IMG/VR virus record: IMGVR_UViG_2648501299_000008
Direction: 5' to 3' (one strand)
Origin: a virus
Taxonomy: Duplodnaviria > Heunggongvirae > Uroviricota > Caudoviricetes
DNA length: 43,241 nucleotides
The notes beneath the pieces are model-generated. The model saw only the letters and a list, made by a program, of their open reading frames with translations, was not told where the DNA came from and searched no databases. Of this stretch, positions 31,732 to 37,711 are shown in pieces. How positions within the stretch are numbered: position 1 is the first letter of the stretch; the number at the start of each line of letters is the position of its first letter. The position numbers and the translations under genes are program-made.

Positions 31732-31823
31732 GGAGGGTTGGCCGAGTGGTTGATGGCACCTCACTGATAATGAGGCGTACGGGCTATAAACCCGTACCGC
31801 GGGTTCGAACCCCGCACCCTATT
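31732..31823 (+). tRNA. tRNA-like element, class-II (long variable arm) architecture, anticodon GAU; probably degenerate
   Basis: Hand fold: acceptor GGAGGGT/ACCCTAT (5 Watson-Crick pairs, one G-U, one G-A mismatch); 3-bp D stem GCC/GGC with GAGTGGTTGAT loop; anticodon stem CCTCA/TGAGG with loop CTGATAA; 23-nt variable arm with 7-bp stem; T arm GCGGG-TTCGAAC-CCCGC; no encoded CCA. Confidence 0.45.
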
Positions 31824-31824
31824 T

Positions 31825-31860
31825 AAGGGGTCGACAAATGTCGGCCCCTTCTTCGTTTTA
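31825..31860 (+). terminator. hairpin/terminator immediately 3' of the tRNA-like element
   Basis: 10-bp stem AAGGGGTCGA...TCGGCCCCTT followed by CTTCGTTTTA. Confidence 0.4.
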
Positions 31861-31911: not shown

Positions 31912-32043
31912 TCAATCACCTGCCATTGCGTAGCCGAGATTACCGCCGTCGCTTTGTGCTGCTGCTTTTATGAGTATTTCCTGTATCTCGTGCAGACGAT
32001 CGAGTGATACAGGACCGTTCACCGGGTGGTTGTTAATTGTCAT
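31912..32043 (-). CDS. small hypothetical protein downstream of the methylase-like gene
   Basis: 43-aa ORF whose ATG overlaps the stop of the restored methylase frame (TAACCATG). Confidence 0.3.
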   Translation of the reverse strand: MTINNHPVNGPVSLDRLHEIQEILIKAAAQSDGGNLGYAMAGD

Positions 32044-32045
32044 GG

Positions 32046-32523
32046 TTAGTCCTTCACAAAGATAATCCAATGGGTTTTGTCGTTCTTCCCAGTACGCTGA
32101 CCAATTGCAGGTTTCACGTCAGTAAGAGCTAAAATCTGGCTAACCGGGATCTGCGTTTCGTTCCATTTGAAAATAAGCACGCCGCGCGGCCACAGCACCC
32201 GAAACGCTTCTTTGAAACCGGCGCGTAAGTCAGAGCGCCACGTTTTTTTTGTTCAGTCGCCCGTATTTTTTACCCATCCAGGCAGACTGGCCCACGCGCT
32301 CGAGGTGCGGCGGGTCAAACACCACAACCGGAAAAGAAGAATCAGCGAACGGCAGTGAACGAAAGTCTGAAATCAGGTCTGGACTGATAACCAGGCGGCG
32401 ACCGTCGCACAGTTCGTGCTCTTCGGCGCGAATATCAGTGAACACGGCGCGGGTGTCCTGCTTGTTGAACCAGAACATGCGGGAGCCGCAGCACATATCA
32501 AGAATCGTCGTGTTGTCGGTCAT
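32046..32523 (-). pseudogene. DNA adenine-methyltransferase-like gene interrupted by a frameshift in an A8 homopolymer
   Basis: N-terminal frame (ATG 32521-32523) encodes ILDMCCGS and VVVFDPPH motifs, then stops at 32230 just after the A8 run (T8 on plus strand, 32243-32250). The adjacent frame continues ...TWRSDLRAGFKEAFRVLWPRGVLIFKWNE... to a stop at 32046. Removing one A gives a continuous ORF of about 159 aa. Confidence 0.55.
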
Positions 32524-32831
32524 ACTGATGCTCTCCCGTAAAACGCCAGTACACGCTGCATAGCCGGACTTGTGCGGCATACGGATGTGACCATGTTTTT
32601 TCTCACTTTCGATTTGAGTTGCTTGATATTCTGCTCGCCACCGGGCTGAAGCGAATAGACCGGGCGATGCGGCTCGCCAGTGCGGATTACTACCGTTTTG
32701 CGTACTAGGTGAAGCAGCAGGTTGTGTGCCTTCTTGCAGTCGCATCCCAGCAGGCTCTGAACCTGACGAGGGGTTATGGTCTGGTTAACCCGAAGGAAAT
32801 CGACGATTGCCCACAGTGATTTGCTTGCCAT
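32520..32831 (-). CDS. hypothetical protein (possible winged-helix DNA-binding protein) downstream of the DnaC-like gene
   Basis: 103 aa with GAGGG Shine-Dalgarno; coupled to the flanking genes. Confidence 0.4.
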   Translation of the reverse strand: MASKSLWAIVDFLRVNQTITPRQVQSLLGCDCKKAHNLLLHLVRKTVVIRTGEPHRPVYSLQPGGEQNIKQLKSKVRKNMVTSVCRTSPAMQRVLAFYGRASV

Positions 32832-37367: not shown

Positions 37368-37392
37368 ACCGGCATTATGCCGGTTTTCATAT
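37367..37392 (+). terminator. rho-independent terminator closing the cI-side operon
   Basis: ACCGGCA-tta-TGCCGGT stem at 37368-37384 followed by TTTCATATT; starts at the stop codon of the membrane protein gene. Confidence 0.6.
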
Positions 37393-37711
37393 TCCTTTTC
37401 TCACCATAGCAGTGACATCCCACAACACTCCTTTGTGAATCACATTTCCAACCGCGCGACGCTTAGTCTCCAAGCTATCTACTATCGCATCTCGACTTAT
37501 CACCACACCGTTGATTATCTACTCGACAACTGCACCGCCAATCTCGCCAGCCATGAAAGCAGCGCGATCTTCCAGCAGCTCATCACGTGACATATCCATT
37601 CCTAAACCCATATCAATATCCCCGCCTGGTGTTTTTTTGAGCATATCACGCATCTCATACAAAAATAAATCACTTTATAAATCAAATAAAAATCGGCAAA
37701 ATCACAATATT

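Follow-up and report, generated by a model that had tools for sequence, protein, structure and literature searches.

The DNA methyltransferase gene located at positions 32046..32523 (minus strand) of the window, that is, of the whole 43,241-nucleotide stretch of viral DNA analysed here, is in all likelihood an ordinary pseudogene, generated by a single +1 slipped-strand insertion in a run of adenines and subsequently spread through E. coli. Its status as a pseudogene is already known, as it is flagged by RefSeq/PGAP: the same span in E. coli 2018-10-1CC (NZ_AP021894) is annotated as 'class I SAM-dependent methyltransferase, frameshifted'. Apart from this annotation, the reading is supported by the existence of an intact protein otherwise identical to the disrupted one and, in a small sample, by substitutions at invariant residues of the truncated product.

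Structure of the locus

The methyltransferase gene starts with an ATG at 32523, which overlaps as ATGA the stop codon of the upstream Ren-like gene (32520..32831, minus strand; phrog_142 'Ren-like exclusion protein', E 2.8e-28). As it is encoded, the N-terminal ORF (32230..32523, minus strand) comprises 97 codons, reads MTDNTTILDMCCGS...VVVFDPPHLERVGQSAWMGKKYGRLNKKNVAL on translation and is closed by a TGA at 32230-32232. Only two motifs of the enzyme are contained in it: motif I (ILDMCCGS, residues 7-14; 32482..32505, minus strand), which is the SAM-binding loop and whose D9, C12 and G13 are invariant in an alignment of 55 sequences, and motif IV (DPPH, residues 70-73; 32305..32316, minus strand), the catalytic motif of exocyclic-amino methyltransferases, of which D70, P71, P72 and H73 are all invariant in the same alignment. 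The initial annotation had described a methylase-like ORF with these two motifs that ends just after an A8 run, and its coordinates and motifs are all confirmed. The run (T8 on the plus strand) lies at 32243..32250 of the minus strand, and both the sequence and the survey of the tract in relatives identify it as the site of the +1 insertion.

Past the run, the adjacent frame (32046..32243, minus strand) continues with TWRSDLRAGFKEAFRVLWPRGVLIFKWNETQ...THWIIFVKD (TWRSDLRAGF...THWIIFVKD). About 60 further codons had been announced and 65 were found, up to a TAA at 32046-32048; this C-terminal part, now out of frame, has the same sequence as the end of P0241, the intact protein of Citrobacter. 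The proposal that one A fewer restores a single ORF holds as well: once it is removed, both parts fuse on translation into 158 codons. The repaired protein matches phrog_954 ('DNA methyltransferase') from end to end with an E of 1e-84, residues 2-157 being aligned to positions 49-201 of the 229 of the profile, and it exists as an exact Citrobacter protein, so the joined reading frame is not due to chance. In the ancestral A7 state the codons of the run are AAC AAA AAA ACG, that is, N91-K92-K93-T94.

The A8 run is the only homopolymer of at least eight bases in the 43-kb window, in which ~0.9 such A/T runs would be expected from base composition. A second A run, A6 (T6 on the plus strand), is situated in GKKY at 32266..32271 (minus strand) and constitutes a lesser frameshift site in relatives; one of these (P0260) ends with ...WMGKNTGD, which corresponds to a frameshift in this second run. 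Neither an Rfam scan nor a promoter and terminator scan of the neighbourhood detected any cis element acting on the tract.

Genomic context

The window corresponds to a lambdoid prophage and matches E. coli 2018-10-1CC (NZ_AP021894) with 100% identity. According to family matches, the minus strand carries, in this order, a YdaS/YdaT pair, a replication initiator, a DnaC-like helicase loader, the Ren-like gene, the methyltransferase, a 43-aa ORF, NinB, RusA, Q and the lysis genes; transcription of a LexA-family repressor gene diverges from them, and a tRNA occupies the opposite strand, flanked by the 43-aa ORF on one side and the nin genes on the other. No partner restriction gene was found among the neighbouring genes of the prophage operon. 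By its sequence context, the gene takes the position of the lambda early-right operon, and this synteny suggests that it is probably expressed in lytic growth and repressed, and so silent, in the lysogen. For this reason a methylome of the lysogen, as suggested by the initial annotation, would probably be of little use.

The 43-aa ORF (31912..32043, minus strand) has its ATG 2 nt past the ancestral TAA, and from this spacing its translation was probably coupled in former times to that of the methyltransferase. The stop codon of the truncated frame is found 187 nt upstream of this ORF, the expression of which is possibly weakened by the early stop as a side effect.

The tRNA (31732-31823, plus strand, 92 nt) was called by ARAGORN, Rfam (46.4 bits) and PGAP; its anticodon is GAU (Ile), its variable arm is long, and a terminator-like hairpin is present just past it (31825-31850). 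In bacteria, long variable arms normally characterise Leu, Ser and Tyr tRNAs, which makes an Ile anticodon on such a scaffold odd. As to the general state of the prophage, a second pseudogene at ~37387-37593 (minus strand; L001 11438-11644) is flagged by PGAP as 'hypothetical protein, internal stop'. The region of the immunity and replication-initiator genes is missing from one carrier, L316, and in a further carrier, CP159700, an IS3 insertion adjoins the tRNA. Parts of this prophage lineage are undergoing decay.

Distribution and origin of the A8 allele

A 671-bp region including the A8 run shows 100% identity in four complete E. coli chromosomes, two of these records being apparently from the same strain. 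Of two others among the four, one has a surrounding prophage of 99.4% identity that contains an IS3 insertion, and one a prophage of 98.3% identity in which modules have been replaced. Over the A8 carriers compared, the surrounding prophages differ by 0-1.6%, in their lysis and nin modules, and by an IS3 insertion or a deletion. The exact 97-aa A8 product is present in 148 contigs under E. coli names, which may represent one clone or several, and in 233 index blocks. The eight loci listed from these blocks come from NCBI isolates, from the Logan re-assembly of an SRA run and from an ENA metagenome assembly; they have differing lysis and nin modules, one of them is a deletion derivative, and all are A8. 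Ten further loci were reached via the neighbouring Ren-like protein, an approach that is blind to the tract, and A8 was found in 10/10. In all the A8 carriers compared (four chromosomes, eight loci and ten loci) the gene is identical base for base, and the flanks of the eight checked loci are also identical over 340-477 bp on each side, save for one upstream base in one locus.

Since the same A8 is found across independent assemblies, an assembly error is excluded; the insertion is genuine and inherited. The absence of substitutions in the gene and its flanks among the carriers points in turn to a single, recent origin of the A8 allele.

The intact parent allele

Relatives with 97% identity and 157-158 aa read GRLNKKTWRS, which corresponds to A7. 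In an exact look-up among ~15 billion proteins, the 158-aa product of the A7-repaired gene was found as WP_159137328.1 ('MULTISPECIES Citrobacter', 14 contigs), and the products that the window allele would give with A5, A6, A9 or A10 were absent. At the protein level, at which the A7 and A8 forms of the window allele were compared, there is a split by host genus, the A7 product being recorded under Citrobacter names and the A8 product under E. coli names. A scan of IMG/VR with an allele-specific 42-mer for the Citrobacter A7 allele returned only relatives of 89-90%.

Among the options offered by the initial annotation, a recent inactivating mutation is the one that agrees with these data, as intact A7 relatives are the rule and A8 is a single allele without local divergence. 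It had also been contemplated that homologues might share the same stop and lack downstream conservation; this is not so, and the relatives are intact. The out-of-frame C-terminal part of the window copy bears no secondary lesion and is identical to the functional-looking allele, from which it follows that the frameshift is young. Variants of the truncated product, in a small sample, carry G41D, P48S, D70Y (inside DPPH) and G88E, all of them at invariant or nearly invariant positions. Such substitutions fit relaxed constraint, as purifying selection on a working gene would purge them.

The A run as a mutation hot spot

The comparison of tract length with relatives, which had been recommended, was carried out with a DNA pattern tolerating A6 to A9; ranked locus lists were set aside for frameshift frequency because their single-segment score is biased against frameshifted copies. 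Among the first 120 copies listed from IMG/VR, 115 were A7, three A8 and two A6, and the 29 copies from metagenome contigs comprised 28 A7, one A8 and no A6. The common state among the tract-bearing copies listed is A7 (143/149, 96%), followed by A8 (4/149) and A6 (2/149). Differing flanks indicate at least five independent tract events, that of the window included, and in both directions. Over 480 bp, the A6 copy L200 is distinguished from two A7 copies (L245 and L236) by a 1-bp deletion only, so the tract changes on short time scales. Five other disruptions were seen in the same 120 IMG/VR copies (one nonsense codon, one internal deletion and three 3' truncations), and about half of all inactivations among the copies listed thus fall in a run of 7 bp within a gene of 475 bp. 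The A7 run is the main breakage site of the family and a recurrent hot spot.

Many homologues are devoid of the run: position 93 is occupied by D, E, N, A or Q in them, and E. coli 30EVA1 has AAAGAAA. Where both lysines are present, their codons are AAA 101 times and AAG once (102 codons), all but one of the 51 distinct NKKT alleles being AAA AAA, and in these 51 alleles AAA likewise encodes K104, K119 and K149 at ~100%. Selection for the tract was not accepted as an explanation, AAA being just as fixed at the other lysine positions; the pattern would fit selection for the run as well as shared ancestry.

Breakage at the A7 run also explains some odd gene models and separate protein families. 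In Salmonella phage vB_SosS_Oslo (JQ806764 28850-29227; L003 3104-3481) the run is A6, the annotated 125-aa 'putative DNA methyltransferase' AMBK_36 is the frameshift product, and the true C-terminus is in the other frame, which runs to 28758; this A6 may be a genuine mutation or a homopolymer sequencing error of a 2012 record. Two PHROG families of 117 positions, both named 'DNA methyltransferase', match only residues 2-94 (phrog_11564) and 57-157 (phrog_6151) of the repaired protein, and look like the N-terminal and C-terminal halves of frameshifted phrog_954 genes instead of real families.

The methyltransferase family and its target base

The relatives at E<=1e-10 are 3,795, and a single uninterrupted full-length match was obtained in 244/253 phage records carrying the family. 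Its members have ~150-160 aa, and identities of 45-65% are maintained across phages of Proteobacteria, Firmicutes, Actinobacteria and Bacteroidota, among them phages of Streptococcus, Listeria (54% to A118 ORF50), Gordonia, Vibrio, Acinetobacter and Porphyromonas; identity amounts to 89% with the Salmonella phage Oslo protein and to 35% with a haloarchaeal virus homologue. No dedicated family is available in Pfam, where the generic Methyltransf_11 and Methyltransf_25 match below threshold only; an NCBIfam search of the repaired protein gave nothing useful, sequence and profile searches of the PDB gave no significant match, and literature searches on the family and on 'DPPH motif' found no characterisation. 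The window gene resembles other orphan methyltransferases of phrog_954 (A118 ORF50, Oslo AMBK_36 and the methylase of Pectobacterium phage ZF40) in its full-length homology, its size, the invariant D-x-CCG and FDPPH and its site among early/replication genes of temperate phages, but differs from them in being broken. For the phrog_954 members found, neither a solved structure nor a measurement of specificity came to light.

A first AlphaFold model, from a shallow alignment (30 sequences, at least 75% identity), reached a pLDDT of 45.7 and was discarded; the model used was built on an alignment diversified by a second search seeded with A118 ORF50. The protein has a Rossmann-like class I methyltransferase fold with the SAM-binding motif I, and the model includes no target-recognition domain, the core filling all 158 residues. 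Residues 95-156 are modelled as one helix (95-109) and three β strands (115-121, 138-141 and 150-156) of the Rossmann core, which are lost in the truncated product; with a stop after residue 97, the window copy has no intact frame for a complete catalytic core.

The gene had been called adenine-methyltransferase-like. Motif IV of N6-adenine DNA methyltransferases is (D/N)PP(Y/F/W). The DPPH motif, invariant in the 55-sequence alignment, sustains an exocyclic-amino type of enzyme, but this type is common to N6-adenine, N4-cytosine and N2-guanine methyltransferases. The fold matches are mixed (TrmN, Trm11, M.TaqI, MboIIA, PvuII and N4CMT) and do not settle the target, and the annotations in the records disagree: the protein of Listeria phage A118 'methylates cytosine residues in DNA', that of halovirus HSTV-1 is a 'cytosine methyltransferase', and elsewhere the description is generic. 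The 'adenine' label is a guess that goes beyond the evidence and must be considered unproven.

Many close relatives (P0005, P0006, P0012 and ~30 others, 248-251 aa), from Citrobacter, Enterobacter, Leclercia and Salmonella, present a conserved C-terminal extension of ~90 aa (...LLLHYATKRIIELEKLLL...HHQRRLKHHINRMWLE...) fused to the core. In a different prophage, from E. coli 30EVA1 (NZ_CP138423; L002 2329-3467), an intact homologue occupies the early-left region, beside a methyltransferase of the MT-A70 family. Lambdoid genomes accommodate members of phrog_954 at more than one position.

Alternative explanations

It is unlikely that the loss was selected because, after a move from Citrobacter to E. 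coli, the methylation was attacked by McrBC, Mrr or McrA or was otherwise harmful. The partition of the alleles between the two hosts agrees with this explanation, and it is well established that inactive foreign methylases are selected in mcr+/mrr+ E. coli. Nevertheless, E. coli commonly carries other family members that are intact, such as P0031 and P0032 (~83% identical, in clusters of 271 and 1,099 sequences). Selected loss would concern why the mutation spread and not what it is, and it is compatible with the gene being a pseudogene.

There is also a slight chance that low-level expression persists, the frame being restored and the wild-type protein produced by RNA polymerase slippage or by a +1 shift of tRNA-Lys. 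As read from the sequence, this protein needs an mRNA with A7 or A10, or a +1 tRNA-Lys shift within the run; re-pairing from A4-6 to A5-7 would leave ACG TGG as the next codons and give the wild-type NKKTW. Eight-A runs slip productively in some organisms (PMC1088944), non-programmed frameshift suppression is ~1% in E. coli (PMC10861913), and a trace of full-length enzyme from such suppression is possible. At the transcript level, however, the rescue requires a 1-nt deletion or a 2-nt insertion, whereas slippage at A/T runs in E. coli transcripts consists mostly of single insertions, and homopolymer runs are the starting point of <1% of transcript deletions (PMC5574713). The run is A8, below the 9 nt at which selection against slippery runs typically becomes evident (PMC1088944). 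The two-frame layout is not conserved either, as 143/149 tract-bearing copies are in frame and single full-length matches predominate in the phage records; the in-frame A7 being the conserved state, the shift is not programmed, and the run is too short and the shift in the wrong direction for it. Genes that do depend on slippage (Thermus dnaX with A9, IS transposases, Shigella mxiE with T9) are similar to the window gene in having such a run at the junction of two frames, but they conserve the two-frame arrangement and their run usually reaches at least 9, while the window family conserves the in-frame A7 and its rescue needs a deletion, which is rare in runs for E. coli RNA polymerase (PMC5574713).

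The phase-variable switch that had been put forward as an option, in which replication slippage would turn A7 (on) into A6 or A8 (off) and phage populations would mix both, is very improbable and was not supported. The tract is inside the coding sequence and has suffered one-base changes in both directions in at least five lineages, with only a 1-bp deletion between L200 and L245 or L236, and one-base variation is seen in 6/149 copies; AAA AAA is nearly universal in the NKKT alleles, and the window allele retains an undamaged C-terminal frame. However, the E. coli copies are uniformly A8, in the four chromosomes, in the eight loci found through the truncated product and in the ten Ren-anchored loci, the A7 form is named from Citrobacter only, and no A6, A9 or A10 product appears in the ~15 billion proteins. 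Were the switching rapid, both states would be expected in diverged E. coli carriers, and none was seen in at least 15 independent assemblies; mixed on and off lengths among closely related isolates are thus lacking for the window allele in E. coli. Besides, the preference for AAA extends to K104, K119 and K149 and is not specific to the tract, 96% of the family copies are simply A7, the truncated variants are mutated at invariant residues, and the prophage operon to which the gene belongs is repressed and lacks a partner restriction gene. Contingency tracts are typically longer than A7/A8, and mismatch-repair-proficient E. coli rarely changes such runs. The mod genes of phasevarions (Haemophilus, Neisseria, Helicobacter) also have a repeat in the methyltransferase ORF whose length sets the frame, but their repeats are longer or multi-base, individual strains contain both on and off forms and the cell expresses the genes, in contrast to an A7/A8 tract that is uniformly off in E. 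coli and part of a repressed prophage operon.

It is equally hard to believe that the A7 run is kept in the family as a low-rate switch, by which lineages would shed and regain self-methylation as they pass between hosts with methylation-sensitive and methylation-dependent restriction, the A8 of E. coli being an 'off' state selected after the jump from Citrobacter.

Finally, the possibility of a sequencing or assembly error with A7 as the true sequence, also raised by the initial annotation, is next to nil, for although homopolymers are classic error sites of 454, Ion Torrent and long-read sequencing (which may apply to the A6 of Oslo), the same A8 was obtained by different laboratories and pipelines (NCBI isolates, ENA metagenome assembly and Logan re-assembly), in four complete chromosomes, at least 15 independent assemblies and 148 contigs.

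Proposed history of the pseudogene

An ordinary frameshift pseudogene is thus the preferred reading. Slipped-strand mispairing would have added one A to the A7 within the codons N91-K92-K93-T94, so that translation now ends after 97 residues, with the SAM-binding loop and DPPH kept and residues 94-158 lost. According to the structural model, the 97-aa fragment should be inactive, as it would be unable to fold the Rossmann core without the helix and the three strands. Phage orphan methyltransferases usually protect phage DNA from restriction, and the intact enzyme would likewise methylate the DNA of progeny phages against it. If the gene is silent in the lysogen, as synteny suggests, its loss would cost the host nothing and would be neutral. 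The insertion would have occurred once and recently. Carried by the prophage and by mosaic variants of it, it has since spread in E. coli, and the intact parent allele persists in Citrobacter. Against this reading it can be argued that the event is young, so that reversion or low-level rescue may be possible, and that the A6 copy L200 attests changes of the tract on short time scales.

Frameshift pseudogenes at mononucleotide runs of enterobacterial prophages offer a close parallel: they too show a one-base change in an A run, have intact orthologues elsewhere, suffer the lesion recurrently and independently, and affect dispensable accessory cargo, as is the case here, where PGAP already flags the gene. 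Nothing substantive differs between them and the window gene, in which the feature to be noted is the wide spread of one allele (148 contigs).

Implications

The gene of the window should be treated as a pseudogene, as it is in RefSeq, and its run should not be 'corrected' to A7 in the polishing of assemblies. The prophage probably no longer self-methylates its DNA with this enzyme. The family itself, which is widespread, very conserved, of ~155 aa and without a Pfam entry of its own, is a better target for study than the broken copy of the window.
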